Assembly: GCA_029266015.1 (NCBI GenBank)
Contig: JAJUFK010000001.1
Span: 1-53,608 of the forward strand
DNA from: Bacteroidota bacterium
GTDB lineage: Bacteria; Bacteroidota; Bacteroidia; Bacteroidales; UBA1715
DNA length: 53,608 nt
Direction of reading: 5' to 3'
Shown here piece after piece: positions 7,017 through 23,507 of this stretch. Within the stretch, counting starts at the first letter, position 1, and each line of letters opens with the position of its first letter. The translations under genes were made by a program, and so were the position numbers. The notes beneath the pieces are model-generated. The model saw only the letters and a program-made list of their open reading frames with translations. It did not search any database and had not been told where the DNA came from.

Positions 7017-8336
7017 ATGGACGAGGTTCAAGACGAAGCAATACAATCCAAGCAAGATTCTGACATACAGCATATAAAATACATATCGGGTCAATTTGAA
7101 GATTGGTTTCTTGATTATGCATCGTATGTAATAATGGAGCGTGCTGTACCATATATAAACGACGGTTTAAAACCGGTGCAACGACGTATACTCCATTCTA
7201 TGAAACGAATGGACGATGGCAGATACAATAAAGTTGCAAACATAATTGGTCATACCATGCAATTTCACCCACATGGGGACTCATCAATAGGTGAAGCTTT
7301 GGTTGGATTAGGACAAAAAGAATTATTGATTGACACCCAAGGTAACTGGGGAAATATTTATACCGGCGATAGTGCTGCCGCTCCTCGTTATATAGAAGCA
7401 CGATTATCAAAATTTGCAAATGAAGTTGTTTTTAATCCGAAAACCACTATTTGGAAATCATCATACGACGGTAGAAACAAAGAACCTATTACCTTACCGG
7501 TAAAATTTCCGTTACTTTTAGCTCAAGGGGTAGAAGGTATAGCTGTGGGAATGGCATGTAAAATTTTACCTCATAACTTTAATGAACTTATAGATGCCAG
7601 CATAAAATATTTACAAGGCAAACCATTTGAATTGTATCCCGACTTTCCGACAGGTGGTTATATAGATATTACAAAATATAATGACGGACTCAGAGGTGGT
7701 GTAGTAAAAGTTCGTGCAAAAATTGTAAAAATTGACAATAAAACATTGGCTATTACAGAAATTCCATATGGCAAAACTACTACTGCCGTAATTGATTCTA
7801 TAATAAAAGCAAATGAAAAAGGTACTATTAAAATTAAAAAAATTGATGATAATACCGCTGCTAATGTTGAAATACTAATTCACCTTCCGCCAAATGTTTC
7901 GCCCGACGAAACTATTGACGCATTATATGTTTTTACCGAATGTGAAATTTCAATTTCTCCAAATGCAAGTGTTATAATAGAAAAATCTCCTGAATTTATT
8001 GGTGTTTCTGACATATTACGAATATCAACCGACAAAACTGTAGAATTACTCCGTCGTGAATTAGAAATTCGTTTAGAAGAACTCAAAGAAGATTGGATGA
8101 AAACTTCGCTCGAAAAAATATTTATTGAAAAAGAAGTATATGAACTTATTAAACCTTGTAAAACAGAAGAAGAAATTCTTAGCACAATTTTTAAAGGTTT
8201 AGAACCCCATGTCAAAAAATTCTGGCGTCTGGTAACTCGCGAAGATTGCGTGATTCTTTCAAATATTCCTATTAAACGAATTTCTAAATTCAGTTCGTTT
8301 AAAGCCGATGAGTATATTAAAGAAATTGAAATTTAA
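7017..8336 (+). CDS. parC: DNA topoisomerase IV subunit A (ParC), N-terminal fragment ending at an in-frame TAA
   Basis: 439 aa with GLKPVQRRILH, HPHGD and the active-site AAAPRYIEARL (catalytic Tyr). The GyrA/ParC breakage-reunion domain continues without loss of similarity into the next ORF in the same frame. Confidence 0.85.
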   Translation: MDEVQDEAIQSKQDSDIQHIKYISGQFEDWFLDYASYVIMERAVPYINDGLKPVQRRILHSMKRMDDGRYNKVANIIGHTMQFHPHGDSSIGEALVGLGQKELLIDTQGNWGNIYTGDSAAAPRYIEARLSKFANEVVFNPKTTIWKSSYDGRNKEPITLPVKFPLLLAQGVEGIAVGMACKILPHNFNELIDASIKYLQGKPFELYPDFPTGGYIDITKYNDGLRGGVVKVRAKIVKIDNKTLAITEIPYGKTTTAVIDSIIKANEKGTIKIKKIDDNTAANVEILIHLPPNVSPDETIDALYVFTECEISISPNASVIIEKSPEFIGVSDILRISTDKTVELLRRELEIRLEELKEDWMKTSLEKIFIEKEVYELIKPCKTEEEILSTIFKGLEPHVKKFWRLVTREDCVILSNIPIKRISKFSSFKADEYIKEIEI

Positions 8337-9740
8337 ATGGATGAAGTAAAAAATCATCTTGCTCATATGATAGATTTTGCTATCAACTATTTTACTCAAA
8401 TTCAAAAAAAATACGGAAAAGACAAAGAACGCAAAACAGAAATCAGAAATTTTGAACAAATAGAAGCAACTCAAGTTGTAATAGCTAACACTAAATTATA
8501 TGCAAATTTAGAAGATGGTTTTGTTGGCACATCGCTCAAAAAAGACACATTTATTTGCGATTGTTCTGATATTGATGACATTATAGTATTTATGCAAGAC
8601 GGTAAATACAAAATATCAAAAGTGAGTGACAAAGCATTTTTTGGAAAAAATATCATACATATTGGTGTATTCAGGAAAAATGATGAACGTACAATTTACA
8701 ACGTTGCGTATCGCGATGGTAAATCAGGAATAACTTATATGAAACGATTTGCTGTAACGGGCATAACTCGTGACAAAATCTATGATGTTACTAAAGGAAC
8801 ACCTAATTCAAAAGTCTTATATTTTAGTGCAAATCCTAATGGTGAAGCCGAAATTATAAAAGTGTATTTACGTCAGAATCCTCGTTTACGCAAAACTATT
8901 TTTGAAGTTGATTTTAGCACACAAGTTATTAAAGGAAGAAATTCACAAGGAAATATTTTAACAAAGCATCCATGCTTCAAAATAATTAAAATAGAAGAAG
9001 GCGTATCTACTTTAGGTGGAAGAAAAATATATTTTAACTTTGAAACAAAACGATTAAATGATGGCGGTTATGGTGAATATTTAGGGGAATTTAAGGGGTC
9101 AGACAAAATATTGGTTCTTACAGCCGACGGCAAGTATACTCTTACCACTTTTGATTTAAGTAATCACTACGAATATGAAATTCTAAAAATCGAAAAATTT
9201 GATGATTCTAAAATTTGGACAGCCGTGTTCTACGACGGTGAACAAGAAAATTATTATATAAAACGATTCGAAATTGAAGAATCAAGTAAATTCATAAGTT
9301 TTATTGGTGAACATGAAAAATCATATTTAGTAGCTGTAAATGATGATGTGTATCCACAACTACAAATAGAATTTGGAGGCAAACATGCTTCTCGCGAACC
9401 TGAATTAATTGATGTAGATGAATTTATTGGTGTAAAAGGTATAAAAGCTCGTGGTAAACGTATTACTACCTTTACTGTAAAAACAATAACATTTATTGAA
9501 CCATTAGAAAAAATTGCATCTTCAGACGACACAATTGATCCTGAATCAGAAATTGGAGAAGAAGACTCTTCTGATGACACTATTGAACCTGAAAGTGATT
9601 CTGAAATAGATTCTGAAAATACAATGGTAGAAACAACAAATGATGAAAAAATAAATATAAATACGTTATCGTCTGTAAAACCTAAAAAAGAACCGCCTCA
9701 AAATTCATCAAATACGCCAAGTCAAATGTCATTATTTTAG
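8337..9740 (+). CDS. parC: DNA topoisomerase IV subunit A (ParC), C-terminal fragment (rest of coiled-coil arm, beta-pinwheel CTD, acidic tail)
   Basis: 467 aa. The ATG immediately follows the TAA of the previous ORF in the same frame. It begins inside the conserved helix that precedes ...KYGKDKERKTEI. Repeated beta-pinwheel blades follow, then a D/E/S-rich tail. Confidence 0.85.
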   Translation: MDEVKNHLAHMIDFAINYFTQIQKKYGKDKERKTEIRNFEQIEATQVVIANTKLYANLEDGFVGTSLKKDTFICDCSDIDDIIVFMQDGKYKISKVSDKAFFGKNIIHIGVFRKNDERTIYNVAYRDGKSGITYMKRFAVTGITRDKIYDVTKGTPNSKVLYFSANPNGEAEIIKVYLRQNPRLRKTIFEVDFSTQVIKGRNSQGNILTKHPCFKIIKIEEGVSTLGGRKIYFNFETKRLNDGGYGEYLGEFKGSDKILVLTADGKYTLTTFDLSNHYEYEILKIEKFDDSKIWTAVFYDGEQENYYIKRFEIEESSKFISFIGEHEKSYLVAVNDDVYPQLQIEFGGKHASREPELIDVDEFIGVKGIKARGKRITTFTVKTITFIEPLEKIASSDDTIDPESEIGEEDSSDDTIEPESDSEIDSENTMVETTNDEKININTLSSVKPKKEPPQNSSNTPSQMSLF

Positions 9741-9745: not shown

Positions 9746-10411
9746 CTATTCATCATCATCGTCGTCGGTATCTATGGTATTTGTGGGTTGCACCACCGAT
9801 TTTGATGATTGTTGTTTTACTTCATATTTCTGAGGTTTTGAAATTATTGTTTGTTTACGAATAACACTTTGATCAGTTGAAAAATCTGTAATTTTAGTAT
9901 TTTCAATTATTAATTCACCTATCGAAGAATCTTCAACTTCAAATTCAGAAATTACCGAATTTTTTATACTAATTTGCGTAACAGACAGAGCACTGATACT
10001 CAAATAAGAACATGTAATATTTTCTATTACCAATTTTGAAATAATTGAAGAATCAATCATAATATCGGTATGTTTAGTATTACCTATCCAATATTCACCG
10101 GTTATAATTTTAGAAATAGATATATTTTCAGGATTTATAAATTCTTGAACTATTTCTTGCACGGTGTCATGTAACACATCGAGAGTATCTACATCATTTG
10201 CATTTGATACAATAGTATCAGCAATTTTTAAAGGAGTTATAATAGGTGGTATTTGAATACTTTGATCACCTTTTTGCAGAAGTTGTATTGCATTACCAAT
10301 AGTTATTGTATCAATTGTGGTTTGCAATGGAATACTTATCAATTGTTGAGCATTACATACACTTATAATTACAAAAGCACAAACGAATAAAACAAATTTC
10401 ACTAATTGCAT
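9746..10411 (-). CDS. hypothetical secreted protein with poly-Asp C-terminus
   Basis: 221-aa ORF with an N-terminal signal peptide (VCNAQ|Q), an I/S/N-rich beta-type repeat pattern and a terminal DTDDDDDE. It is the last gene co-directional with the GH5 operon. No family was recognised. Confidence 0.55.
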   Translation of the reverse strand: MQLVKFVLFVCAFVIISVCNAQQLISIPLQTTIDTITIGNAIQLLQKGDQSIQIPPIITPLKIADTIVSNANDVDTLDVLHDTVQEIVQEFINPENISISKIITGEYWIGNTKHTDIMIDSSIISKLVIENITCSYLSISALSVTQISIKNSVISEFEVEDSSIGELIIENTKITDFSTDQSVIRKQTIISKPQKYEVKQQSSKSVVQPTNTIDTDDDDDE

Positions 10412-10471: not shown

Positions 10472-11680
10472 CTACTTATTAACAGCACCACCTTGTAATA
10501 CGGCATTCAATCCTTGATAATCGGTAATTTTATATGTAGAACGATTAAAAAATCCCCATGAATTGGCACCTGTTCCTCCGGCATCCCAATAGAATGGAAC
10601 CATTTGGTTTTCAACACAAAGTTGGGTAACATATCGTAACCAATAAGCTCTTGAATTTAAATGAAGAGCAAGGCTTTCTCCTGTTAAATGAGAACGTCGA
10701 ACAACACCATATTCTCCAACTAAAACAGGAATACCTTTATCTACGAACTTTTCGCGTATCATTCCAAATAATTTTACAATTTCATCTTCTTCGCCCCAAT
10801 ATGAATTTCGAAGCGTATCGGTTTTTGAATAATATTTTTTACTCCAATAATAAGTCATACGTCCCCAATTAGCATCCTCGGTTAAGCCGCAAAAAGTATA
10901 CGGAGTATAAAAATGGACTTCAAGCATCAATCTATTTGGTACAACATCGGTAGGGAATGTATGCATAAGTTTATATGTTTTTTCAAAATCTGTAGAAGGC
11001 CCCGGCACCACTAATATACGGTATGCATTTCGGCCTCCGGTAGAACGAACGGCATCAACAAATGTTTGATAATATGAAAGTAATACAGCCATTTGTTCTG
11101 CATTCTCAACATTTGGTTCATTTGCTCCGGCAAAGAGTAATCGTTCATCATAATCTCTGAAGTAAGTAGCTATTTGTTCCCAAAATGCTTTTTGTTTTGC
11201 ATTATTTTGATCTTTGTATTGCGGTGTACAATTATTTTCTAACCACCCTCCATCCCAATGAATATTTAACAATACATACATATCATTGTCAATACAATAA
11301 TCTACTACTTCTTTTACTCGTTTAAGCCAATTTTTATCAATTTCAGCTTTTGCTGCATTTGACAGATATTGATTCCAAGCACAAGGAATTCGAATTGCAT
11401 TAAATCCGGCTTTTTTTACAGCATCTATCAATTGTTTGGTAACCATGGGATTTCCCCAAGCAGTTTCACCTCCGGTAGCTTCCATGGTATTGCCTATATT
11501 CCAACCTAAATGCATTTTAGCAGCCAATTGTATGGCATTACTTCTCATACCTGTGGTATCCGGGGCTTTGGGTGAAGTATTGTAACTTGGATATACAGGA
11601 GTATTTTGAGAAAAAACTACTGAAGAGATTAATACTATAATAAGTACTACAATACTATGTAATCGAAAAATTTTATTCAT
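10472..11680 (-). CDS. glycoside hydrolase family 5 endo-beta-1,4-glucanase (cellulase or xyloglucanase; subfamily not resolvable by eye)
   Basis: 402 aa with IRIPCAW, the acid/base motif FAGANEPN, the nucleophile motif LVGEYGV and an SPI signal peptide. Confidence 0.85.
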   Translation of the reverse strand: MNKIFRLHSIVVLIIVLISSVVFSQNTPVYPSYNTSPKAPDTTGMRSNAIQLAAKMHLGWNIGNTMEATGGETAWGNPMVTKQLIDAVKKAGFNAIRIPCAWNQYLSNAAKAEIDKNWLKRVKEVVDYCIDNDMYVLLNIHWDGGWLENNCTPQYKDQNNAKQKAFWEQIATYFRDYDERLLFAGANEPNVENAEQMAVLLSYYQTFVDAVRSTGGRNAYRILVVPGPSTDFEKTYKLMHTFPTDVVPNRLMLEVHFYTPYTFCGLTEDANWGRMTYYWSKKYYSKTDTLRNSYWGEEDEIVKLFGMIREKFVDKGIPVLVGEYGVVRRSHLTGESLALHLNSRAYWLRYVTQLCVENQMVPFYWDAGGTGANSWGFFNRSTYKITDYQGLNAVLQGGAVNK

Positions 11681-11688
11681 AAAAGGTA

Positions 11689-12927
11689 TTATTTAGTAGA
11701 TTTAGCAAGTTGAATAAACGACATATCATCAATATATACAGCCGATGCTCCTTCGAAAGTCATAATTATTTGAGTAATCTCATACAGATTCAATCCTTCT
11801 TCTTTGGCTTTAAAATATGAGAGAGGAATAGTAACTTCTCTCCAAGTTTCATCTATTGCAGCTCCTTTATAATAAGCATTTGATATACTTACACTTTTTG
11901 ACACTATAGAACCATCATCTTGTAAGCTTATAAACATAGGTACAGTTTGCATACTACCTTCTTTAGTGCGAATCCAGAAGTGTAACGCCCACGAATCCAT
12001 AACCTCGGTCATATTTACAACCTTCCAATTATTCCATGCAAAACCTGCAGAAATAACACCACATCCACTTTTAGCGGTATTCCACGATAAATACAACGAT
12101 GAAGAACCATTCTTTTTCACATCGCTAACTTCAACAAATTCTCTACAAGCATCTTTTTCTATACCCCATGCATTTAGTACTTTGTCTGAATATACTGAAG
12201 TAGCAGATAATCCTGTTTCTTTTTTAGTTCCCGAAGCATCTGTTTTTGCTATGTTTATAAGTTGTAATTCATCAATATATATAGATGCTGAACCTTCAAA
12301 AGTTGTAATTAATTGCGAAACTGATGTTACATTAACTCCTTTGGAAATAAAACGAAAATATGATAACGGAATAATCACTTCTTTCCATGTTTCATCTATT
12401 CCCGGCCCCTTATAAAATTTTTCTGATACCGACACATATTCAGTTGTTTTGTTGGCATCGTCTATAAAACTAAGAATAAGCGGCACATTTGGTAACGTTC
12501 CTTTTTTGGTACGAACCCAAAAGCGAATAGCCCATGTATCTAAAATTGTTGACATATCAATAGTTTGCCAATTATTCCAAGCCCATCCTACACCAATCCA
12601 GTCACAACCTTTTTTAGATTTATCCCATGTAATAAGAAGCGATGCTGCACCTGCTTTTTTTACAGAATCTACAACAATAAATTCTCTACAAGCATCTTTT
12701 TCGGTTCCCCAAGTATTTCGAATATCATCGGTAAAAATATCGGTTGCCGTAAATTTTTCAATATAATCAGAATTTACTTCTTTATTAATTACAAAATATG
12801 GGTCATTATCGTCGGCAGTGTTTAAAGCCAAAGGCAAAAAGTGAACACAACTGCTTAAACTGAACATTACAAGTATAATACTTGCTACATGTATTGTTTT
12901 TTTCATAGTAATCGAGTTTAAATACAT
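11689..12927 (-). CDS. surface lipoprotein with two tandem ~170-aa beta-sandwich (CBM-like) modules; candidate glycan-binding protein
   Basis: 412 aa with lipobox SLSSC (Cys27). An alternative start at 12906 gives MKKTIH.... The internal duplication has a 181-aa offset (WGTEKDACREF / WGIEKDACREF; TFEGSASIYIDE / TFEGASAVYIDD). Trp- and aromatic-rich. Confidence 0.7.
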   Translation of the reverse strand: MYLNSITMKKTIHVASIILVMFSLSSCVHFLPLALNTADDNDPYFVINKEVNSDYIEKFTATDIFTDDIRNTWGTEKDACREFIVVDSVKKAGAASLLITWDKSKKGCDWIGVGWAWNNWQTIDMSTILDTWAIRFWVRTKKGTLPNVPLILSFIDDANKTTEYVSVSEKFYKGPGIDETWKEVIIPLSYFRFISKGVNVTSVSQLITTFEGSASIYIDELQLINIAKTDASGTKKETGLSATSVYSDKVLNAWGIEKDACREFVEVSDVKKNGSSSLYLSWNTAKSGCGVISAGFAWNNWKVVNMTEVMDSWALHFWIRTKEGSMQTVPMFISLQDDGSIVSKSVSISNAYYKGAAIDETWREVTIPLSYFKAKEEGLNLYEITQIIMTFEGASAVYIDDMSFIQLAKSTK

Positions 12928-12937
12928 TGTCTATTTT

Positions 12938-13942
12938 TTAAAGTGGTTTACCTTTAGTTATTATTACAAAATCAATGTCGCATGCCAATTTGGGAGTAGC
13001 TATTCCATTTGAGAAAAGCATTACAAACATAGAAGTTATTTTGCTTATCTCCATTTTGCTGTTTCCTGCAGCATTTGCTTCGGTTTGTAGTTTGCTTAAA
13101 GGTATTGAAACTTTTTGCCATGTAGTAGCTGTGGTAGGCACTTGATATCGATATGAAAACGAATCTTCACTTGCTTCGGTATATACACCATCTCCATTAT
13201 CATCTTCTAATATTTGAAAGTTTATAAATGTATTTGCTGTACCATATCCACGAACAAAAAAGTTAATATATGTAGTTGCTGTATCAGCATCATTGAGAGG
13301 AAAATATGGTTTACCAACTATTGATTGAGCCGAAACAGGAGGAAAACTTCCTATCCAATACGAACTTCCGCCTTCAGTACCTTCCATATAGAAATAATTA
13401 ATACCTTCAGGAGCATCAGATTTATTGATACGTTTTGCTTGCTTTCCGTTACCACCCCAAAATTCTTCGGCTCCCGAACCTTCGAAATGTTTAATAATAT
13501 AGCCAACTTTAGAATAATCTCGCGGTTCAGCAATTGTAACCGTTGTTTTCATAGTATCAGGATAATCTTTAAACGAAAACACCACATCGCACACTTCTTT
13601 TCTAAAAAATATGCCATCTGCACTACCATTCCATTGTCCGGCAATTGAATCGAGATTTTTTGATTTTCCGGTAATTGTTTTCACAGCTCCCGAAGTTCTT
13701 CCTTTGATTTCAATTTTCCATTCTGCCATATTAGTCCATGAGCCTGAAAATTGAAGTACACTATCGGTCTTAAAATTAATAGCACCTGAATTTGTATATG
13801 TTAAGGAGTCCAATATTCGAAATGGTCCATATAAATCTACCAAATTTGGTCCAATTGGGTCTTCTTTTTCGCAACCTAAAAACAAATTCGTTGTAATTGT
13901 TGCAGCGAGTATATAGAATACTATTTTTTTCATAACCTTCAC
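12938..13942 (-). CDS. lipoprotein of unknown function, beta-sandwich-like C-terminal half
   Basis: 334 aa with lipobox LFLGC. It is 7 nt from the upstream gene and 10 nt from the downstream gene. No SusD-like helical repeats were recognisable. Confidence 0.65.
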   Translation of the reverse strand: MKVMKKIVFYILAATITTNLFLGCEKEDPIGPNLVDLYGPFRILDSLTYTNSGAINFKTDSVLQFSGSWTNMAEWKIEIKGRTSGAVKTITGKSKNLDSIAGQWNGSADGIFFRKEVCDVVFSFKDYPDTMKTTVTIAEPRDYSKVGYIIKHFEGSGAEEFWGGNGKQAKRINKSDAPEGINYFYMEGTEGGSSYWIGSFPPVSAQSIVGKPYFPLNDADTATTYINFFVRGYGTANTFINFQILEDDNGDGVYTEASEDSFSYRYQVPTTATTWQKVSIPLSKLQTEANAAGNSKMEISKITSMFVMLFSNGIATPKLACDIDFVIITKGKPL

Positions 13943-13949
13943 TTTTTTA

Positions 13950-15650
13950 TTAGAATTTCATTGAAAATATCATATACACTTGTTGAATTGAAAAATCATA
14001 TTCTGACTTCTGTACATGTGTAACATTATATGTACTCCCTTGCAATGTAAGAGCTATATTATCATTAAATCTATAACGAACCCCTCCGGCATATAATGTT
14101 TGCTTATTGTTGAGCGAAAAAACCGAATAATCGGTAATTTCATTAAATTCATTACGAACACTTGCATATTCAGTTCCTTCTACAGTGAGCAATTTAGCCC
14201 CGGCCAACACATCAAATCGCGGTGCTAATTCTACCACCACCCCGGCATCATATGCAATTGAATGCAAATTTACATCGGGCACTAATAATTTTCCGTCACG
14301 ATTACTCTGTGCATATTGAATGCCGGCTGTTATTTGCAATGTGTTATCTAAATCAATTAATTTATGAATTGCAAGCATTCCATTCCAGTTAAACAATAAA
14401 TAATTACGTAATTCTTCGGTACCTTCGCCTCTTACATCTTTAAGTAAATCGGCACTTAAACCAGAAGCATATACGTGTGCTGAATCGGTATAGTCTATTG
14501 CAACAGAAATCCCTTTTCTGTTAGGAGTTGCTTTACCATATGGGGTAACATGATTTAATGAATAATCATATGGCATAAGCTGTGGTGTTATAGACGGATT
14601 GTATATAGTTTGATCTTTTACTAAATCAAACAATCCAACAGAACGAGTAAATGATTTTTCTGATACTAAAGGTAATACTTGTGGTGTTGCGCTATAATTA
14701 ATTCGTTTTGTTTGTGCTCCGGCGCTTATAAAATCATCACTTACTCTACGATATGATGCTTGTAATGTAAGTTGTTTTGAAAGCAATAATTTTGTAATTC
14801 CAGCCTCAAAAAAATTACCTGCAATATCTTTTAATGCAACAGCAGATGTATCGGTATAAGCCGATACTGAGACACCTGCTTCACCAAACAAAATAAAATC
14901 TTTAACAGTAAAACGAGCTATAGCGGTTGATACCGAATTTTGATATTTTTCTTTAGTATCGTTACTAACTGTTTTGGGTAAGTCAAACAATGAAATGTAG
15001 TTGAATCCTATATATGAGCCGGAATTTATATTACATTTCACAACAGTTCCTCCCTGCAATCTATCAGGAATTATATTTCCTTCAACACTTCTATTGCGTA
15101 CCATAAAACCGGAAATATCGGCAGATTGAATAAATTTGTCAAATCCTAAACGAAAAGCACCATCAACTCCTTGTTGACGCCAAAAATTTCCATAATTAAA
15201 GTTTTCTTCTTGATTAATGTCACGAGTAAATCTAAATATTTCAGCCTCATTTTTAGACAATTCTCCATCATAATTATACAACGTATATGGGGTCATTTTT
15301 ACATCAATATCACCAAATCTGTATTTAAAAATATTACCTGCAACACCTTTTAATGATAAATGACGGAGTTGAATAGTTGCTCCTTGCCCCCAAAAACCAC
15401 CCATGGGATTAGCAAATCGCAAATCTGTTTTTAAACGAATATTATCTGATGGTTTTATATCTAACCGTAAATCAACTACTGTGTTTCCTCCTGTAGCTTG
15501 GTCAATATTTGTAGTATCAGTTTGAGGTAACCAATTACTCTCAATAGAACTACGTGCAGCTCCGTTAAAAATAACTTTTTGATTTTGTGCATATGTACAC
15601 AATCCTATAGTACTTAGAGCAATAATAATCGGAATTTTTTTCATTCGCAT
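13950..15650 (-). CDS. outer-membrane beta-barrel protein, uncharacterised family (not SusC-like)
   Basis: 566 aa with signal peptide ...CTYAQ|N, an amphipathic beta-strand pattern, Gly/Asn/Tyr richness and C-terminal ...MIFSMKF. No plug or TonB-box was recognisable. Confidence 0.7.
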   Translation of the reverse strand: MRMKKIPIIIALSTIGLCTYAQNQKVIFNGAARSSIESNWLPQTDTTNIDQATGGNTVVDLRLDIKPSDNIRLKTDLRFANPMGGFWGQGATIQLRHLSLKGVAGNIFKYRFGDIDVKMTPYTLYNYDGELSKNEAEIFRFTRDINQEENFNYGNFWRQQGVDGAFRLGFDKFIQSADISGFMVRNRSVEGNIIPDRLQGGTVVKCNINSGSYIGFNYISLFDLPKTVSNDTKEKYQNSVSTAIARFTVKDFILFGEAGVSVSAYTDTSAVALKDIAGNFFEAGITKLLLSKQLTLQASYRRVSDDFISAGAQTKRINYSATPQVLPLVSEKSFTRSVGLFDLVKDQTIYNPSITPQLMPYDYSLNHVTPYGKATPNRKGISVAIDYTDSAHVYASGLSADLLKDVRGEGTEELRNYLLFNWNGMLAIHKLIDLDNTLQITAGIQYAQSNRDGKLLVPDVNLHSIAYDAGVVVELAPRFDVLAGAKLLTVEGTEYASVRNEFNEITDYSVFSLNNKQTLYAGGVRYRFNDNIALTLQGSTYNVTHVQKSEYDFSIQQVYMIFSMKF

Positions 15651-15680
15651 ATATTCTTAATAAAATTATTTTTACTGTAT

Positions 15681-17543
15681 TTAAAAATAAACTCGTAACT
15701 CAACAGTACCTTCAAATCCTTTGTAAGTATAGAAAGTATTGTTTCTATCAGTATAATCGAACCAACGTCCACGCACATACAAATTGGCAGAATTTGATAA
15801 TTCTGCATCGAATCCCAAACCTAAACCGGTTCCTAATACATTTGTAGGATTTCCTTTAAGGTTTGGTCCATGTTTCATATATTGATTTCCTTTCATAGTT
15901 TCTAAACCAAAGTATCCTGCCAATGCAACTTTTGATAACACTTTGTAATATGATTCAAATTCATGATATTGAATTTGCATATATGCTTTGTCTGAAACCA
16001 CCGGATACAACGATAAATCTTGTTGCATGGTAGAAAGTGAACCTAAATAAAACAAATACAATGGTTTATTCAATATATTGACTTTATATTTTAAATTGCA
16101 TTCGAGTGTATTGAAATTTAATTTTTTCCATGATATATATGTTGGGTTAGTGGTATCAATTGAACTAGTTTCATAATATCCTCTATATGTTGTATTAAAA
16201 CTTTCGTTTTCACCCAAATTAGTTTGATACGCATACACACGGGCAAACATAATTCCATTGATTCGGTGGTTATAAGAAATAATATGCGTTAAATGTTCAA
16301 CTTCTTGCGATATACCATATGCCGCATTTATTTTTAATCCTTCTATATTTAGTTCTGTTCGCACATCAGCCCCTTTACGATTCCCATTTGTATAATCAAT
16401 ATCAGAAATTGTAGCACCTACAGGATTTCCGCTTCCTCCTTCACCATTATAATTTGCCGATGCATCACGCAAAAACGTATTGAAACCTGCATCTAAACTT
16501 ATAAACTTGGGTTTTATATAATAATAATGAAATGTAACAGGTGCCGAAAGTATGTTACTCTTTGACAACAGACTAAAATCCATAGCATAGGCCCAATGTT
16601 CTGACAAATCCGATGATTCAACAAATCTACATTCTCCAATTTCACCTGAAAATACCATATCATTTTGCCAAAATGAATATGCTCCATCTGTTGTTATTAC
16701 ATTGTATCCATAAGCTTTACCATTTACATCACTTGTATAAGCAAGAGTATTTAATGAATTAAACCCTATATAACTCATACCCATTTTTTTACGAATATTA
16801 CCTCCATATGTCATATTATAATTTTTACTCACATATGAAGTTTGACCGCCATTATTAGGTGTTTTGGCATATATAAGTTTTGATTCTAAATTATAAGGTA
16901 ATTTAGTAATGTCGGCAGTAAACCCTTGTAAAAATTTATTACCCCATGTAAAGTCTCGCGAAATAGTCCCTTGAGAATAATATGATTCATAATTTTGACC
17001 TGCTTGTTGAAATCCACCCCATGGGCTGCGTTCAAACATACTTTCACCTTTATTTTCGGTACTCCACAATGTAAGTTTTGACAATTTTGTAAATTGTGTT
17101 CCACCAAATTTTAAATATGCATTTGCTTGTTTTGTATGTATTTGTGCTTCTAAATTTACTCCTATTTCAACCCCCAATCTATCCGATGTAGCTGTGTTGT
17201 ATCCGGGGCCTCGCATACTTGGAGCCAAAAACATATCTGATTTGAAAAATGTATTTATCGTTGGTCGTCCGGAAAAATTCAATCGTAAAACACGCTGTTC
17301 TCCTCCTCCGTCACTGTTACTCAATATCATTTTTTCTTGAGCTTGATTGCCATCAAACAAACTATCAAATTGTCGATAGTAAATCAAACCATTGTATGAA
17401 CCATCTATAGTAAAACTACGAATTGGTTTTTTTCCTATATATATAGTATTGCCGTTTACATCGGTAGAATCTTGATGAATGTATTGAGCATATAAACTTT
17501 GTATACATACAACAAAAAAAACAAGAGGTACAATTCTTTGCAT
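15681..17543 (-). CDS. outer-membrane beta-barrel protein, uncharacterised family, distant paralog of 13950-15650
   Basis: 620 aa with signal peptide ...SLYAQ|Y, a beta-strand pattern and C-terminal ...TVELRVYF. It shares N- and C-terminal motifs with the 566-aa neighbour. Confidence 0.7.
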   Translation of the reverse strand: MQRIVPLVFFVVCIQSLYAQYIHQDSTDVNGNTIYIGKKPIRSFTIDGSYNGLIYYRQFDSLFDGNQAQEKMILSNSDGGGEQRVLRLNFSGRPTINTFFKSDMFLAPSMRGPGYNTATSDRLGVEIGVNLEAQIHTKQANAYLKFGGTQFTKLSKLTLWSTENKGESMFERSPWGGFQQAGQNYESYYSQGTISRDFTWGNKFLQGFTADITKLPYNLESKLIYAKTPNNGGQTSYVSKNYNMTYGGNIRKKMGMSYIGFNSLNTLAYTSDVNGKAYGYNVITTDGAYSFWQNDMVFSGEIGECRFVESSDLSEHWAYAMDFSLLSKSNILSAPVTFHYYYIKPKFISLDAGFNTFLRDASANYNGEGGSGNPVGATISDIDYTNGNRKGADVRTELNIEGLKINAAYGISQEVEHLTHIISYNHRINGIMFARVYAYQTNLGENESFNTTYRGYYETSSIDTTNPTYISWKKLNFNTLECNLKYKVNILNKPLYLFYLGSLSTMQQDLSLYPVVSDKAYMQIQYHEFESYYKVLSKVALAGYFGLETMKGNQYMKHGPNLKGNPTNVLGTGLGLGFDAELSNSANLYVRGRWFDYTDRNNTFYTYKGFEGTVELRVYF

Positions 17544-17598
17544 ATTAAATGTAAAATTTCAATATTTATTTAGTAATAAAAAAATCTCCAAGTATTCT

Positions 17599-17623
17599 CA
17601 AAACTAAAGATTATACAAATATA
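17599..17623 (-). promoter_or_regulatory. two candidate -7 boxes (TAGTTTTG and TATATTTG on minus strand) for the OMP-lipoprotein-GH5 operon
   Basis: Plus strand reads CAAAACTA (17599-17606) and CAAATATA (17616-17623). Both are exact consensus complements, 56 and 73 nt upstream of the ATG at 17543. Confidence 0.3.
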
Positions 17624-17742
17624 TAAAACTATTTTTATAAAATACGTCATGTTATTGTATTTTTAACACAAACTTTTTGTATTATTGTATTCAATTTGGA
17701 GTTAATACGTTTTTGTAATCTTATTTAAAATAGTTTTAATTG

Positions 17743-20589
17743 ATGTTTTTTCGCAAACAGCTATTATCATTATGTGTTCTTGTAATATTAGGAATACATA
17801 CTGTAATGTTTTCACAAACAAGCCGTGAAACATATAATTTTAATCAAAATTGGAAATTTGCCTTGGGACACGCATGTGATGTACAAAAAGATTTTAATTT
17901 CAATACAGGTCATTTTTCATATTTAGCAAAAACCGGATATGGTGATGGGGCTGCTTCAGAAAAATTTGATGACAGAGCATGGAGAAATATTCAATTACCT
18001 CATGACTGGTGCATTTCATTGCCACTCAATGCGCGAGCAAGTAATAGCCATGGTAATCAAGCTATCGGAAAATATTTTCCCGAACATAGTATTGGTTGGT
18101 ACAGAAAACACTTTTTTATAGAAAAAGCCGATACAAATAAACGTATTCGAATAGAGTTTGAAGGAGTATATCGCAATTCAAAAGTTTTTGTAAATGGTTT
18201 TTTTGTAGGTGGAGAAGAAAGCGGATATGATAGTTTTGGCTTTGACATTACAGAATACCTCAATTTTGGTGATGTAAATGTAATAGCTGTTCGTGTAGAT
18301 GCAACTATGGAAGAAGGATGGTTTTACGAAGGAGCAGGTATATATAGAAATGTATGGCTGGTAAAAACAAATAAACTTCATATTGCAACAAATGGCACAT
18401 ACATACAATCAAACATTGAAAATAATAAGGCTGTCGTTACTATTCAAACACAGTTACAAAACGACTTGTTTACACCACAAGAATATTCAATTGAATATAT
18501 AATTACTGATGCCAAAGGTACTATTGTGAAGCAAATACAAGTACCAAACTACCAATTAGTTACAAATCTATCTCATACAACAGAAACTGTTATTAACATA
18601 GAAAATCCCATTATATGGTCAATTGAAAATCCATATCTATATAATCTTAAAACCAGAATATTACAAAATACCATCTGCATAGACGAAACAAATACTCGAT
18701 TTGGTATTAGAACCCTCTATTTTGATGCAAACAAAGGATTTTTCTTAAATGGGAAATCTGTTAAAATAAAAGGTGTATGTGTGCATCAAGATCATGCCGG
18801 CGTTGGAATTGCTATACCATATGAATTACAAAAATGGCGTATTCAACAACTCAAACAAATGGGAGTAAATGCAATAAGAACATCGCATAACCCACCAAGC
18901 CCTGATTTATTAAATATATGCGATGAAATGGGAATGTTGGTTATGGATGAATTACGATTAATGGGAGTAAACGAATATCACCTTAGTAAAATTACATCTT
19001 TACTTACCAGAGACAGAAACCATCCATCGGTATTTATTTGGAGCTTAGGTAATGAAGAATGGGCAATAGAAGGAAGTCAAAAAGGAGCAAAAATTATTGA
19101 AAAAATGCAGACATACGCAGCATTGTATGATACAACCCGTGCATTTACCGTTGCATCAAGTGGAGGTTGGGATACAGGTATTGGAACTACCGTTCAAATA
19201 ATGGGATATAATTATTTAAAACACGGCAATGTAGATGAACATCATAGTAAATTCCCATGGCAACCAAGTATAGGAACAGAAGAAAGCAATACCGTGAGAA
19301 CCCGCGGTATATATAAAACTATTGATTCAATTTGTTGGCTGGCTCCTACCAATTTATATGATGAAGGCATGGAAGGAGGTTGGAAATTTTATGACGAACG
19401 TGAATTTTTGGCAGGACTATTTTTTTGGACAGGATTTGACTACCATGGAGAACCAACTCCATATAACTGGCCAGCGGTAATTTCGCAATTTGGCATATTA
19501 GATTTATGCGGTTTTCCTAAAGACAATGCGTATTATCTTCATTCGTGGTGGAAACAAGAACCGGTAATTCACATTGAGAGCAATTGGAACCGTATTCCGG
19601 GCGAACAAATTGATTTAGTTGTATATAGCAATTGTGCTACTGTAGAATTACTTATAAATGGGCGAAGTTTAGGTAAAAAATCAATGCAAAAAAATGGTCA
19701 TATAGTGTGGCCTATTACTTTTGAACCGGGTGTTTTAACAGCACGAGGATATGGTTCACTGGTTATGCCGCAAACAGATTCTACAAAATTACTTATAACC
19801 AAAGAATTTAAAACTGCCGGCAAACCTGCCGCAATTCAAATAATTCCTCATAAAAAAACATTAAAACCTGATGGTCAAGATGTTGCAATATGTACTATTC
19901 AAATTGTTGATAACAAAGGAACTATTGTACCCAATGCAAATATAGATATTACATTTGAAATTACAGGAAATGCGGCATTTATAGGTGTTGGCAACGGCAA
20001 TCCATCAAGTCACGAAAAAGAAGTATTTCAGGATAACATAATAGTAAAACCAATTATGATTCATAAAGAATTACCGGTACAATCGCTCAGCAAACGCCCC
20101 GAAATTGCCGTAGGTTTTGATGATACAAAATGGAGAACAGCATATTCCGCAGAACCTTCAGATTGGAAAGAATATAGTGATACATTATTAGTTATGAGAG
20201 GATCTTTCATGCTTGATGCTATTACAAAAGATATGATAATTACACTATTTGCAAAAAATATTTTAAGCAACCAAGTAATATATATTAATGGAGCTATGAT
20301 TACTGCAAATGCAGAAAACACATATGTTTTACCTCACGCTATACTCAAACAAGGCACTAATGTATATGCTGTTGTTGGACAAAAATTAAAACGTCCCAAT
20401 CAATGGGAATACCCTAATCGTGACCCCGGATTGATTCAAATAGTAACTCCGGTAAAACAATGGCAACGAAAAACATTTAATGGATTGGCTCAAATAATTG
20501 TACAATCTAAAACAACACCCGGGAAAACTACTATTAAAGCTCGAGCTCAAGGGTTGCCGGAAACAGAATTACAAATTGACATTAAATAA
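17743..20589 (+). CDS. glycoside hydrolase family 2 beta-galactosidase
   Basis: About 948 aa. The track ORF opens at a TTG at 17740, and the ATG at 17743 is preferred. Sugar-binding, Ig-like and TIM-barrel order with WSLGNEE (acid/base) and ...IGTEES... (nucleophile region). SPI signal peptide. Confidence 0.85.
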   Translation: MFFRKQLLSLCVLVILGIHTVMFSQTSRETYNFNQNWKFALGHACDVQKDFNFNTGHFSYLAKTGYGDGAASEKFDDRAWRNIQLPHDWCISLPLNARASNSHGNQAIGKYFPEHSIGWYRKHFFIEKADTNKRIRIEFEGVYRNSKVFVNGFFVGGEESGYDSFGFDITEYLNFGDVNVIAVRVDATMEEGWFYEGAGIYRNVWLVKTNKLHIATNGTYIQSNIENNKAVVTIQTQLQNDLFTPQEYSIEYIITDAKGTIVKQIQVPNYQLVTNLSHTTETVINIENPIIWSIENPYLYNLKTRILQNTICIDETNTRFGIRTLYFDANKGFFLNGKSVKIKGVCVHQDHAGVGIAIPYELQKWRIQQLKQMGVNAIRTSHNPPSPDLLNICDEMGMLVMDELRLMGVNEYHLSKITSLLTRDRNHPSVFIWSLGNEEWAIEGSQKGAKIIEKMQTYAALYDTTRAFTVASSGGWDTGIGTTVQIMGYNYLKHGNVDEHHSKFPWQPSIGTEESNTVRTRGIYKTIDSICWLAPTNLYDEGMEGGWKFYDEREFLAGLFFWTGFDYHGEPTPYNWPAVISQFGILDLCGFPKDNAYYLHSWWKQEPVIHIESNWNRIPGEQIDLVVYSNCATVELLINGRSLGKKSMQKNGHIVWPITFEPGVLTARGYGSLVMPQTDSTKLLITKEFKTAGKPAAIQIIPHKKTLKPDGQDVAICTIQIVDNKGTIVPNANIDITFEITGNAAFIGVGNGNPSSHEKEVFQDNIIVKPIMIHKELPVQSLSKRPEIAVGFDDTKWRTAYSAEPSDWKEYSDTLLVMRGSFMLDAITKDMIITLFAKNILSNQVIYINGAMITANAENTYVLPHAILKQGTNVYAVVGQKLKRPNQWEYPNRDPGLIQIVTPVKQWQRKTFNGLAQIIVQSKTTPGKTTIKARAQGLPETELQIDIK

Positions 20590-20665
20590 TTGGATATGAA
20601 AAGTACTTGTGTTATACACATCAATAAAAAAATATTTTATTCTTGTAAAATACACTTTACTTTTC

Positions 20666-20673
20666 TATCTTTG
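20666..20673 (+). promoter_or_regulatory. candidate internal -7 box TATCTTTG upstream of GH31
   Basis: Exact TAnnTTTG match, 27 nt upstream of the ATG at 20700. Confidence 0.35.
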
Positions 20674-20699
20674 TGTAAAATTTACAATAACTAAACTGT

Positions 20700-23507
20700 A
20701 TGAAAAAATTATTCATTGTACTTTCCATTACAATATCATTAATTTCTTGCGTATCAAAAAATTACAAAAAAAATGATACAGGTGTTATTATAAAAATTGA
20801 TTCGGTTAATATACAATTACAAGTATATTCTGAAAATATAATACGTGTTACAGCAGCAGTAAACAAACTACCAAAAGATACAAGTTTAGTTGTAAAAACT
20901 CCAAAAAAGCATTTTACTGATTGGTCTGTAACTGAAAATAAAACACATGTAATAGTAAACACAAAATCGCTAAGTGCTTCGGTTAACAAAACTACCGGAG
21001 AAGTTGTTTTTACTGATACTAAAGGAGCAATTATATTGCAAGAAAAACAAGGTGGCGGAAAAACATTTATTCCCAAAACCTTTGAAGGAACAAACTATTA
21101 CAGTGTTATTCAATCATTTGAATCTCCCCTCGACGAAGCATTTTATGGACTTGGCGGACAACACCACGGGTACATGAATTATAAAGGAAAAGATGTAGAA
21201 ATTGCCCAACATAATTTAGTTGCAGCAATTCCATTTATATATTCTAATAAAAACTATGGAATATTATGGGATAATTCCTCTATTTCAAGATTTGGAGACC
21301 CACGTGAATATAGTCAAATTTCAAACTTAACATTTTTTGACAAACAAGGTAAACAAGGAGGACTGACAGCTACATATACCATTGATGGTAAAGTTGTAAA
21401 AACAACAACAGACAGTATAATAGATTTTAGATTTTTAGAAGAACCCGGTATAGAAAGTTTATCAAAAGAAATGAAAGATAAAGGAACTATAACATGGGAA
21501 GGTTCTCTATCATCAAGCATTGCCGGGTTACACAAATTCTTATTATATCATTCGAGCTATGTTAAACTTTGGATTGACGGCGAATTACTATTTGATAATT
21601 GGCGACAAAATTGGAATCCGTGGTCACGTCCATTTACTATATCTTTAGAACCGGGTAGTAAAAAAACTATAAAACTTGAATGGAAAATTGGTGGGGGCTT
21701 TTTAGGATTACAACACCTCAATCCATTATCGATTGAAGAACAAAACAGATTTACACTATCTGCCGAAGCAGCTCATGCTATAGATTATTATTTTATTTAT
21801 GGAACCTCTGCTGACCAAGTTATAGCAGGATATAGAACACTAACCGGAAAAGCAACTATAGTACCTAAATGGGCTATGGGTTTTTGGCAAAGCCGTGAAC
21901 GATATAAAACACAACAAGAAATAATAGATATTGTTCAAACATTTCGAAACAAACAAATACCTATAGACAATATTGTTCTTGATTGGCACTATTGGCCTAC
22001 CAACCAATGGGGTTCGCACAAATTTGACACAGCTGCATTCCCCAACCCTGAACTACTCTGTAAACAAGTACATGATTTGCATTGTAATATTATGATTTCG
22101 GTTTGGCCAAAATATTACGAAGGTATAGACAATTACAAAGCCATGAAAGAACAAGGCTTTTTGTATATGAACAATATTGAGAAAGGACGATTAGATTGGG
22201 TAGGACCCGGTTACAAAAATACCTATTACGACGCATTTAATCCGAAAGCTCGCGAAGCATTTTGGAATCAAATAAAACCTGCCATTTTTGATAAAGGGTT
22301 CGATGCATGGTGGCTCGATGCTACTGAACCCGATATGCATTCAAACATATCATACCATGCTCGCAAATTAAATATGCATCCTACTGCTGTAGGTACCGGA
22401 GAACAAATGTTCAATGCTTTTGCTTACGTTAATGCCAAAGGAGTTTATGAATCACAACGACAAGTTGCTCCTGATAAACGTGTCTTTATTCTTACCCGAT
22501 CTGCATACAGCGGCATTCAGAGCGTAGGCGCTGCTGTATGGAGTGGCGATATAGTAACTCGTTGGAGTGATTTAAAAGATCAAATATCGGTAGGAGTTAA
22601 TTTTTCACTGTCGGGTGCACCATTTTGGACTATGGATATTGGTGGTTTTTCTATTGAAGATAAATTCTACAAAACTACACCTGATATTTTAGAAGAATGG
22701 CGCGAAATTCAAACTCGCTGGTATCAATTCGGAGCATTTTGCCCACTATTTAGAGTACATGGGCAATTTCCATACAGAGAAATATTTAACATAGCTCCCG
22801 AATCACACAAAGCGTATCAATCTATGTTGTATTACAACAATCTACGATATATACTTATGCCATATATATACACTTTAGCAGCACAAACATATCATACCGA
22901 TTATACTATTATGCGTGGATTAATTATGGATTTTGCCCATGATTCTAAAGTTTGGAATATAAATGACCAATATATGTTTGGACCTTGGCTTCTTATAAAT
23001 CCTGTATATCAACCGGGTGCAACAAAACGCTCTGTATATTTACCCGCAGGACAAGGGTGGTATGATTTATATAGCGGAATTTTCTTTGATGGTGGACAAA
23101 CTATTTTAGCAAATGCTCCCTACGACCGTATGCCAATTTTTGTAAAAGAAGGTTCTATTATTCCTAGCGGACAACCTATGCAATATACCAATCAAATGCC
23201 TGACTCTATAATTACATTATTTGTTTACGGAGGCAAAGATGCAAGTTTTACACTGTATGCCGATGAAGCAACTAATTATAATTATGAAAAAGGATTGTTT
23301 AGTATGATACCTATTCACTACACCGAAGAAACTAAAACAATAACATTAGAAAAACGAATAGGAGAATTTGCAGGAATGTTGAAATCTCAAACATTTAAGA
23401 TAGTATATATTGACAAACAACAACCAAAAGCATTTGGAAATATAGAAACTATTTTGGAGGAAATTAAATATAAAGGAGAGAAAATTTCAATACAACTAAA
23501 AAAATAA
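20700..23507 (+). CDS. glycoside hydrolase family 31 alpha-xylosidase-type lipoprotein with PA14-like insertion in the N-terminal domain
   Basis: 935 aa with lipobox LISC. GH31 motifs DAWWLDATEPD (nucleophile region), AAVWSGD and FRVHG. A PA14-like segment lies at roughly aa 195-335 (nt ~21282-21704). Confidence 0.88.
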   Translation: MKKLFIVLSITISLISCVSKNYKKNDTGVIIKIDSVNIQLQVYSENIIRVTAAVNKLPKDTSLVVKTPKKHFTDWSVTENKTHVIVNTKSLSASVNKTTGEVVFTDTKGAIILQEKQGGGKTFIPKTFEGTNYYSVIQSFESPLDEAFYGLGGQHHGYMNYKGKDVEIAQHNLVAAIPFIYSNKNYGILWDNSSISRFGDPREYSQISNLTFFDKQGKQGGLTATYTIDGKVVKTTTDSIIDFRFLEEPGIESLSKEMKDKGTITWEGSLSSSIAGLHKFLLYHSSYVKLWIDGELLFDNWRQNWNPWSRPFTISLEPGSKKTIKLEWKIGGGFLGLQHLNPLSIEEQNRFTLSAEAAHAIDYYFIYGTSADQVIAGYRTLTGKATIVPKWAMGFWQSRERYKTQQEIIDIVQTFRNKQIPIDNIVLDWHYWPTNQWGSHKFDTAAFPNPELLCKQVHDLHCNIMISVWPKYYEGIDNYKAMKEQGFLYMNNIEKGRLDWVGPGYKNTYYDAFNPKAREAFWNQIKPAIFDKGFDAWWLDATEPDMHSNISYHARKLNMHPTAVGTGEQMFNAFAYVNAKGVYESQRQVAPDKRVFILTRSAYSGIQSVGAAVWSGDIVTRWSDLKDQISVGVNFSLSGAPFWTMDIGGFSIEDKFYKTTPDILEEWREIQTRWYQFGAFCPLFRVHGQFPYREIFNIAPESHKAYQSMLYYNNLRYILMPYIYTLAAQTYHTDYTIMRGLIMDFAHDSKVWNINDQYMFGPWLLINPVYQPGATKRSVYLPAGQGWYDLYSGIFFDGGQTILANAPYDRMPIFVKEGSIIPSGQPMQYTNQMPDSIITLFVYGGKDASFTLYADEATNYNYEKGLFSMIPIHYTEETKTITLEKRIGEFAGMLKSQTFKIVYIDKQQPKAFGNIETILEEIKYKGEKISIQLKK

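Follow-up and report, generated by a model that had tools for sequence, protein, structure and literature searches.

A putative xyloglucan-directed relative of the Cytophaga hutchinsonii chu_1276–chu_1280 outer-membrane module in an uncultured Bacteroidales genome

Glycan uptake in Bacteroidota is usually equated with the SusC/SusD pair, and automated prediction of polysaccharide utilization loci (PULs) is keyed on that pair. A 53.6-kb contig (JAJUFK010000001.1) from the metagenome-assembled genome (MAG) of an uncultured Bacteroidales bacterium raises the question of which outer-membrane proteins could serve a glycan-degrading locus in which neither SusC nor SusD is recognisable. This contig, the part of the genome covered here, is referred to as the window. 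It contains five co-directional genes on the minus strand (10472–17543), for which open reading frame (ORF) calling gave gaps of 30, 7, 10, and 8 nt, in agreement with the tight 7–30 nt spacing described in the original prediction:

15681–17543, minus strand: OMP1, outer-membrane beta-barrel of 620 aa, CHU_1276 family, with a signal peptide and plug-less (ORF call, BLASTP, AlphaFold2)
13950–15650, minus strand: OMP2, 22-stranded outer-membrane beta-barrel of 566 aa, CHU_1277 family (BLASTP, phmmer, AlphaFold2)
12938–13942, minus strand: LIPO3, lipoprotein of 334 aa, CHU_1278 family, GTG start (BLASTP, lipobox)
11689–12927, minus strand: LIPO4, lipoprotein of 412 aa with two tandem beta-sandwich modules like those of carbohydrate-binding module (CBM) families 30 and 11 (CBM30 PF21582)
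10472–11680, minus strand: endo-xyloglucanase of 402 aa, similar to subfamily 4 of glycoside hydrolase (GH) family 5, with a type-I signal peptide and without lipobox (PF00150)

SusC and SusD had been described as unrecognisable in the window, and a Pfam scan of every window ORF of at least 150 aa indeed detected no match to Plug PF07715, TonB_dep_Rec PF00593, or the SusD-family models PF07980, PF12771, and PF14322. A pair of 927-aa and 482-aa proteins at 40.9–45.3 kb, considered as SusC/SusD by its size, was rejected, since these proteins are a DNA polymerase I and an MFS_2 transporter. From the analyses reported below we propose, with a probability of roughly 0.6, that the cassette is a form of the outer-membrane module encoded by chu_1276–chu_1280 in C. 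hutchinsonii that is specific for xyloglucan and acts in TonB-independent capture and uptake of beta-glucan.

Relationship of the cassette to the cluster chu_1276–chu_1280

The five genes chu_1276–chu_1280 are co-directional and cellulose-induced, and have been called an "atypical PUL" (PMC12016534). CHU_1276 and CHU_1277 are located in the outer membrane, CHU_1278, whose gene is still uncharacterised, is predicted to be a beta-sandwich protein of two modules, CHU_1279 is a bimodular CBM-like protein of 375 aa that binds cellulose, and CHU_1280 is an endoglucanase (PMC12016534) of family GH9, which has been reported as periplasmic, yet proteomics also places it in the extracellular fraction (PMC6247017). 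Mutants in chu_1276, chu_1277, chu_1279, and chu_1280 are defective on cellulose, those in chu_1276 and chu_1279 also grow poorly on 0.1% glucose, and CHU_1276 has been tied to glucose uptake (PMC12016534). CHU_1277 takes part in cello-oligosaccharide assimilation (PMC5553014). The published distribution of the cluster comprises three Cytophagales: C. hutchinsonii and C. aurantiaca as well as Sporocytophaga myxococcoides (PMC12016534).

The sequence of CHU_1277 was taken from a mass-spectrometry table in the supplement of PMC5553014; an exact look-up led to ABG58549.1, and the longer annotation of the gene led to a C. hutchinsonii locus (L085) encoding proteins of 743, 606, 380, and 375 aa, with a GH9 after them. 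The last of these four proteins contains W89, F92, F180, Y253, F256, and F343, the residues published for CHU_1279 (PMC12016534). Since it carries exactly the residues mutated in that protein, L085 was identified as chu_1276–chu_1280. The C. hutchinsonii locus was found neither among the best 80 loci of the genome scan described below nor in the top 120 matches of the search with the third protein.

Comparison by BLASTP confirmed the Cytophaga lead contained in the original prediction for three of the window proteins. OMP1 matched CHU_1276 (L085:7754-9985) at 2e-43 with 25% identity (residues 50–620 versus 75–743), OMP2 matched CHU_1277 end to end at 1e-88 with 32% identity (264 bits by phmmer), and LIPO3 matched CHU_1278 at 9e-21 with 28% identity over residues 65–334. 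Across the related loci, CHU_1276, CHU_1277, and CHU_1278 matched 84, 80, and 73 ORFs, respectively. The comparison of LIPO4 with CHU_1279 gave a BLASTP E value of 0.62 and, using a profile of 20 LIPO4 sequences, an hhalign probability of 2.5%, and phmmer with CHU_1279 retrieved nothing among the ORFs of the related loci (L001–L080) or the window proteins. LIPO4 was therefore rejected as a CHU_1279 homologue at the sequence level by BLASTP, phmmer, and hhalign. Because three of the four proteins have matches and CHU_1279 has none, the conserved core consists of the two barrels and the CHU_1278-like lipoprotein. LIPO4 holds the position of CHU_1279, and the tandem CBM-like protein of that position has either diverged beyond recognition or been replaced. 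Structure 6R3M, matched by the LIPO4 family profile, is the one that the authors of the CHU_1279 work name as closest to its C-terminal module (PMC12016534).

As to database names for CHU_1277, RefSeq WP_238379357.1 is called a "CHU_1277 family cellulose-binding protein", and no NCBIfam HMM matches it. UniRef labels the same protein a "TonB-dependent receptor"; neither a Plug nor a TonB_dep_Rec domain is detectable in it, and the label is probably a mis-annotation. In a 2016 abstract, Zhou et al. reportedly describe a reshaped genome-wide response to both glucose and cellulose in cells that have lost CHU_1276.

Properties of the barrels and lipoproteins

The module proteins were searched against Pfam and NCBIfam, with matches considered at E ≤ 1. 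No match was obtained for OMP1, OMP2 gave only a generic OMP_b-brl match below threshold, and neither protein matched Plug or TonB_dep_Rec; neither barrel family thus matches any model of these databases above threshold. A signal peptide and a C-terminal F are present in both. Structure models were built by AlphaFold2 with family alignments and compared with the PDB by Foldseek. OMP2 was modelled as an all-beta barrel of 22 strands (predicted local distance difference test score, pLDDT, 87.2; predicted template-modelling score, pTM, 0.83) with its first strand at residue 26, and OMP1 with about 24 strand elements, the first at residue 44 (pLDDT 68.8). Since the strands start directly after the signal peptides, there is no room for an N-terminal plug in either protein. 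Foldseek matches of both barrels were generic (porins, ushers, AlgE, MtrB, and TonB-dependent transporters), with template-modelling (TM) scores below 0.5, and at most 0.41 in the case of OMP1, so no family can be assigned from the fold. At the sequence level, the OMP1 family profile had no match in the PDB, and the sole match of the OMP2 profile below E 0.01 was a short stretch of OprF (E 0.006). The identity of the barrels as truncated SusC, FadL, PorV, or OprB was rejected, as no such match was found in Pfam, in NCBIfam, or with the PDB profiles; together with the modelled strands, this agrees with their first description as plug-less barrels.

OMP1 and OMP2 are related to each other: their profiles aligned by hhalign with a probability of 96.4% (E 1e-9) over about 270 N-terminal columns, and they are therefore distant paralogues. 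If the usual barrel topology is assumed, the periplasmic turns of OMP2 are short, while two long segments, 118–156 (containing a helix) and 304–377, extend to the outside of the cell, and most of the invariant residues of the family are located in these two segments (T123, Q160, G161, F307, S309, Q313, R316, R336, and P370–R378). We expect these long loops to cover the lumen or to fold into it. When the OMP2 profile was used in an exhaustive HMMER search, 785 cluster representatives (50% identity) were retrieved at E ≤ 1e-3, 302 of them at E ≤ 1e-30. Relatives of both barrels are all named "hypothetical protein" and come chiefly from uncultured Bacteroidales.

Each of the two lipoproteins has a lipobox Cys that is invariant within its own family (Cys24 in LIPO3). 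LIPO3 showed a sub-threshold match (7e-5) to SGBP_B_XBD PF18329, the xyloglucan-binding domain of SGBP-B, and its profile had no match in the PDB. The lipid Cys is followed by an acidic stretch, C-E-K-E-D-P in LIPO3 and C-[DE]-H-[DE]-T-[DE] in most relatives, which we take to resemble the surface-export signal of Bacteroidota lipoproteins; LIPO3 is thus predicted to be surface-exposed. LIPO4 matched CBM30 PF21582 in two stretches (1.2e-15; 58.4 bits versus a cut-off of 27) and contains an internal repeat, and its family profile matched the CBM30 structures 2C24 (6e-8) and 1WMX and CBM11 1V0A/6R3M in the PDB. By the Pfam gathering score, its modules are predicted CBM30 modules. Directly after the lipid Cys, LIPO4 family members keep the sequence C-V-x-F-K-x-x-x-L-Y-D-G (region 12840–12850), a segment that may be a barrel-docking element or a plug peptide. 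The earlier view of both lipoproteins as beta-sandwich/CBM carriers and not SusD proteins was borne out.

Enzyme set, distribution, and gene context

The GH5 protein matched PF00150 at 2.7e-61, and its matches in the PDB included Cel5D of Cellvibrio japonicus (5OYC, 4e-159), the Bacteroides ovatus GH5 (3ZMR, 2e-77), and the xyloglucanases 4W8A and 2JEP. Matches of the 5OYC and 3ZMR type we take to be GH5_4 endo-xyloglucanases. Upstream of OMP1, a divergent operon whose genes serve the removal of xyloglucan side chains and the catabolism of xylose (17740–32196, plus strand) was found by Pfam in the order given in the original prediction, including a transporter of the major facilitator superfamily (MFS):

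17544–17739, between the divergent genes: AT-rich OMP1/GH2 intergenic region of 196 bp (sequence)
17740–20589, plus strand: GH2 (Pfam)
20700–23507, plus strand: GH31 alpha-xylosidase, GH31a (Pfam, PDB matches)
23551–25035, plus strand: xylulokinase, an FGGY kinase, xylB (Pfam)
25083–26408, plus strand: xylose isomerase, xylA (Pfam, xylose-isomerase-like)
26478–27860, plus strand: Sugar_tr MFS transporter (Pfam)
27790–29370, plus strand: GH43 (Pfam)
29386–32196, plus strand: GH31 alpha-xylosidase, GH31b (Pfam, PDB matches)

PDB matches were BoGH31A (5JOU, 2.5e-290) and CjXyl31A (2XVG, 3e-279) for GH31a, and BoGH31A (3.7e-158) for GH31b. From these assignments, the enzymes of the window (GH5_4, two GH31, GH2, GH43, XylA, XylB, and the Sugar_tr MFS) read as a xyloglucan utilization set.

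To place the cassette in a wider context, genomes were scanned with an OMP1 alignment. Ninety-two loci were confirmed, and the best 80 of them, from species-level genomes, were used for the counts; neighbour genes were read from stretches of roughly 20 kb around these 80 loci, the window proteins were compared with all their ORFs, and the neighbour proteins were clustered into families. The order OMP1–OMP2–LIPO3 on one strand was found in practically all loci of sufficient length, with LIPO4 next after LIPO3 in 58. Since this gene order recurs in 80 other genomes, the arrangement in the window is not due to chance. The loci include those of Saprospiraceae (21), Lewinella (two, including the cultured L. 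cohaerens DSM 23179), rumen and gut Bacteroidales (12), Cryomorphaceae (nine), Flavobacteriales (seven), Rhodothermia/Rubrivirga (four, including the cultured IMCC45206), Cytophagales (two), and Chitinophagales (one). A literature search for a wider description of the module returned only Cytophaga papers, and in these the phylum-wide distribution and the pairing with GH158, GH16, and GH3 are undescribed.

The expected proximity to carbohydrate-active enzymes (CAZymes) was observed, with homologous cassettes adjoining them in most of the loci found. A neighbour family of 433 aa, present in 54 loci, corresponds to GH158 endo-beta-1,3-glucanases (PDB 9ORO, 3e-111; 6PAL, 2e-74); it adjoins OMP1 in 49 loci, divergently in 45. 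GH3 genes lie near the module in 12 loci, and loci of the Cytophagaceae type have a GH16 upstream, some of them also a GH3 downstream. Homologues of the Sugar_tr MFS of the window occur in 22 loci, and an unannotated tandem beta-sandwich protein in 43. Divergent GH2–GH31–xylB(–xylA–MFS) genes recur in L001 (whose OMP1 is 86% identical), L004, L005, and L008, and GH5 homologues follow the module in L001 and L008. Type-I signal peptides and not lipoboxes are present in the window GH5, in these two GH5 homologues, and in most of the GH158 neighbours. By substrate, the enzymes beside the module correspond to cellulose (GH9), xyloglucan (GH5_4), and beta-1,3- or mixed-linkage glucans (GH158, GH16, and GH3); judging from gene context, substrates of the beta-glucan type would be the common denominator of the module across lineages. 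Regulators also recur: Y_Y_Y/Reg_prop/GerE proteins near the module in 33 loci, as well as LacI and extracytoplasmic function (ECF) sigma factors. TonB-dependent receptors account for two of the 29 large unclassified neighbour proteins.

Several variations on this arrangement were observed. The unannotated tandem beta-sandwich proteins are secreted, of about 330 aa, with two near-identical repeats ("IPIDFES...") and no Pfam match; they occur in one to three copies between the GH158/regulator genes and the MFS gene (L021, L024, L037, and L047 among other loci; for example L024:2968-3966), and are probably further glycan-binding proteins. In a rumen/gut Bacteroidales sub-type (L002, L003, L006, L007, L009, L010, L011, and L015), LIPO3 is tandem-duplicated and LIPO4 consists of one module of about 225 aa. 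A protein of about 968 aa without Pfam match recurs near the cassette (L058:9776-12682, L019, L063, and L071, Rhodothermia-type genomes among them), and in a Cytophagaceae MAG four tandem paralogous TPR–PD40–OmpA genes, coding for about 650–800 aa each, lie downstream of it (L082:13289-19719).

Within the window, the intergenic region at 17544–17739 is presumed to be a shared promoter/regulatory region; a scan for sigma-70 promoters and terminators was uninformative, with promoter-like sites being fewer than in shuffles. The GH43 ORF as listed has a TTG start at 27790 and shares 71 nt with the 3′ end of the MFS gene, and its true start is probably located further downstream, because the Pfam domain begins only at residue 57. 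The sixth small ORF mentioned in the original prediction is present 60 nt past GH5, but is probably not part of the unit, there being no equivalent 3′ of GH5 in the closest relative, L001. Regarding regulators, no hybrid two-component or ECF/anti-sigma type had been recognised; for a hybrid two-component sensor this holds, but a classical histidine kinase/OmpR-type pair is present and could possibly regulate the locus. The GH9 gene, located by Pfam 5.65 kb from GH5 as previously indicated, matched CHU_1280 by phmmer at 1e-37, and possibly belongs to the same regulon. These features are as follows:

2928–4820, minus strand: GH9 endoglucanase with a CelD_N domain (Pfam)
9746–10411, minus strand: ORF of 221 aa with a signal peptide and an acidic tail, without family match in Pfam or NCBIfam; probably outside the module
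32590–33285, minus strand: OmpR-type response regulator (Pfam)
33296–34357, minus strand: histidine kinase (Pfam)

Further genes of the window deserve mention. A second GH9 (46768–51231, plus strand) codes for a multidomain protein of 1487 aa with Ig_7 ("CHU_C associated"), Ig_2, and fn3 domains, a large cell-surface cellulase of Cytophaga style in a Bacteroidales MAG; a similar Ig_7-bearing, GH8-like protein of 1741 aa adjoins the cassette in L003. At 43814–46314 (plus strand), an MFS_2 transporter of the glycoside-pentoside-hexuronide type is followed by a second GH43, and this transporter may be an oligosaccharide import route apart from the Sugar_tr MFS of the main operon. A ParC/GyrA-like topoisomerase IV subunit A gene (7017–9740, plus strand) contains one in-frame TAA (8334–8336) with an ATG directly after it. 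The resulting halves of 439 and 467 aa share one reading frame; the second half lacks a Pfam match, and its tail is acidic and Ser-rich. An assembly error, a pseudogene, or a gene that is naturally split could explain this.

Proposed function, alternatives, and comparison with known systems

In the proposed xyloglucan-specific module, OMP1 and OMP2, as paralogous plug-less barrels of about 22–24 strands, would form a conduit in the outer membrane, and LIPO3 (at the surface) and LIPO4 would bind the beta-1,4-glucan backbone and hold the glycan at the barrels. The glycan or large fragments of it would then pass the outer membrane without a TonB-energised plug. The backbone would be cleaved by the GH5_4 endo-xyloglucanase, most likely in the periplasm since this enzyme has a type-I signal peptide only, and the side chains would be removed by the GH31 alpha-xylosidases, GH2, and GH43. 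The Sugar_tr MFS would import the monosaccharides, with XylA and XylB channelling xylose into metabolism. That the barrels act as a channel, as well as the direction and size of the cargo, is what we infer from these features. The glucanases without lipoboxes fit a long-standing model in which endo-cleavage takes place only after chains or long fragments have passed the outer membrane; the same pattern also fits the published statement that no outer-membrane transporter has yet been identified for cellulose chains (PMC11611037).

Several points weigh against this proposal. Glycan import in place of SusC/SusD, as put forward in the original prediction, is a proposed function for both barrel families, and Ji et al., as cited in PMC5553014, read CHU_1277 as supporting surface beta-glucosidase activity and not as a channel. 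LIPO4 lacks detectable homology to CHU_1279, and therefore only three of the four module proteins are shared. It may, in addition, face the periplasm, since it has no acidic residues like those of an export signal after its lipid Cys. The confidence of the OMP1 model is only moderate (pLDDT 68.8). The window contains no GH3 beta-glucosidase, and in several loci of rumen Bacteroidales no CAZymes flank the cassette, which has housekeeping genes as neighbours instead; among the loci of this group, GH65 occurs in two and GH31 in one. Finally, the absence of SusC/SusD applies to the 53.6-kb contig alone, and a co-regulated SusC/SusD pair may be encoded elsewhere in the genome.

Taken further, the same observations could mean that the module is a phylum-wide, TonB-independent translocon of the outer membrane through which chains of beta-glucan (cellulose, xyloglucan, or beta-1,3-glucan), intact or very long, are threaded to periplasmic endo-glucanases, which may be the GH9 CHU_1280 in Cytophaga, the GH5_4 in the window, and GH158 in Saprospiraceae and Cryomorphaceae. 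We regard this stronger version as unlikely; if true, the "cellulose chain importer" long sought under the Wilson model would have been found, and would extend to a new class of polysaccharide import machine parallel to SusC/SusD.

It is rather improbable that the barrels and lipoproteins serve as a scaffold for positioning or stabilising surface glycosidases and binding proteins, with uptake taking place through other porins or through a SusC/SusD pair elsewhere. CHU_1277 and CHU_1276 have been reported as important for keeping cell-associated beta-glucosidase activity (PMC5553014), which speaks for this reading. However, two large plug-less barrels, found as an adjacent pair in 80 genomes, would be an expensive anchor; the impaired growth of the chu_1276 mutant on low glucose points to permeation (PMC12016534); and most of the endo-glucanases beside the module carry signal peptides of type I, not those of surface lipoproteins, in keeping with the reported periplasmic location of CHU_1280 (PMC6247017).

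Only a small chance is given to the module being a binding and pre-processing accessory of a canonical SusC/SusD transporter encoded outside the window. With 53.6 kb of the genome visible, such a transporter could lie elsewhere, two related loci do have a TonB-dependent receptor within 10 kb, and proteins of the SGBP-B type serve as accessories in canonical PULs (PMC12016534). Against this stand the lack of SusC/SusD in the window and the scarcity of TonB-dependent receptors around the 80 loci. In addition, the passage of PMC12016534 that cites Zhu et al. (2015) gives the SusC/SusD homologues of C. hutchinsonii as dispensable, that is, not needed for cellulose use.

It is very doubtful that the barrels chiefly signal the presence of extracellular glycan to the transcription machinery. 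The reported change of the genome-wide response upon loss of CHU_1276 would fit such a role, CHU_1276 is the key target of an ECF sigma factor (PMC12016534), and ECF sigma, LacI, and Y_Y_Y/GerE regulators recur near the cassette; but the window barrels have no N-terminal signalling extension and no anti-sigma partner beside them, the nearby regulators vary by lineage while the barrels are constant, and altered transcription would also be expected as a secondary effect of lost uptake. That the barrels are general porins or envelope-biogenesis proteins lying near CAZymes by accident can practically be dismissed: some rumen Bacteroidales loci have MoxR ATPase, LptD-like, and tRNA genes as neighbours and the PDB fold matches are generic, but GH158 neighbours are frequent (adjacent in 49 loci, present in 54) and GH16, GH3, GH9, GH5, GH2, or GH31 occur in other loci, the barrels are always (putatively) co-transcribed with CBM-like lipoproteins, and the Cytophaga mutants show specific cellulose phenotypes (PMC12016534).

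Judged by sequence, the module is not categorically new, being of the chu_1276–chu_1280 kind by three of its four proteins and by gene order; what is new here is the substrate (xyloglucan), the enzyme family (GH5_4), and the non-homologous fourth binding protein. The description of the cassette as "distinct" and "uncharacterised" was overstated, since chu_1276–chu_1280 has already been described as an atypical PUL, most members of which have mutant phenotypes (PMC12016534). Cellulose use by C. hutchinsonii is the one well-known exception to SusC/SusD-based uptake, and has so far been treated as a peculiarity of three cellulolytic Cytophagales. The present data show that the CHU_1276/1277/1278 core is an ancient and conserved module, spanning Bacteroidales, Saprospiraceae, Cryomorphaceae, Flavobacteriales, Cytophagales, and Rhodothermia, which, judging from gene context, has been re-tooled for xyloglucan, beta-1,3-glucan, or cellulose through differing enzymes and a swappable fourth binding protein. 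PUL predictors based on SusC/SusD would miss such loci in metagenomes from rumen, digesters, and marine and freshwater habitats. The module also supplies candidate TonB-independent glycan channels for biochemistry, and the Cytophaga problem becomes open to comparative work on its relatives, which offer invariant loop residues as well as cultured hosts (Lewinella cohaerens and Rubrivirga). A Cytophaga-like system elsewhere would not astonish a specialist; the family is nevertheless worth following, given how broad it is, that Pfam and NCBIfam lack it, and that it bears on the unsolved question of cellulose import.

Among known systems, chu_1276–chu_1280 is the closest. Both clusters encode, in the same order and strand, two barrels, a beta-sandwich protein, a tandem CBM-like protein, and an endo-beta-1,4-glucanase without lipoprotein signal, and neither contains SusC/SusD. 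They differ in the glucanase, GH5_4 and xyloglucanase-like in the window whereas it is a GH9 in Cytophaga; in the fourth protein, for which homology to CHU_1279 is not detectable; in the length of OMP1 (620 versus 743 aa); and in the host, here a Bacteroidales MAG from an anaerobic habitat as opposed to an aerobic gliding member of the Cytophagales. Because the neighbourhood encodes xyloglucan debranching and xylose catabolism, the substrate would be xyloglucan and not crystalline cellulose as in Cytophaga. With the xyloglucan utilization locus (XyGUL) of B. ovatus and the xyloglucan system of Cellvibrio japonicus, the window shares the enzyme logic of GH5_4, GH31, GH2, and GH43, and LIPO3 weakly resembles, below the cut-off, the xyloglucan-binding domain of SGBP-B. 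Unlike the XyGUL, the window lacks a SusC-like transporter, a SusD-like SGBP-A, and a hybrid two-component sensor; its endo-xyloglucanase is not a lipoprotein, and xylose catabolic genes and a monosaccharide MFS lie inside the locus.

Like the SusC/SusD "pedal-bin" system, the module combines a 22-stranded barrel (OMP2) with glycan-binding lipoproteins and enzymes in one operon, and FecA and ZnuD are among its better, though still weak, fold matches (TMq 0.46–0.47). It has, however, two paralogous barrels instead of one, and neither a plug domain, a recognisable TonB box, nor an alpha-helical SusD, for which reasons energy coupling is unlikely. The sugar porins LamB/ScrY, OprB, and ChiP differ in having 16–18 strands and no lipoprotein partners, and OMP1 and OMP2 have no sequence relation to them in Pfam or the PDB. 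They resemble the module in being plug-less barrels proposed to pass oligosaccharides, with maltoporin, ScrY, and chitoporin among the fold matches of its barrels at TM 0.3–0.4.

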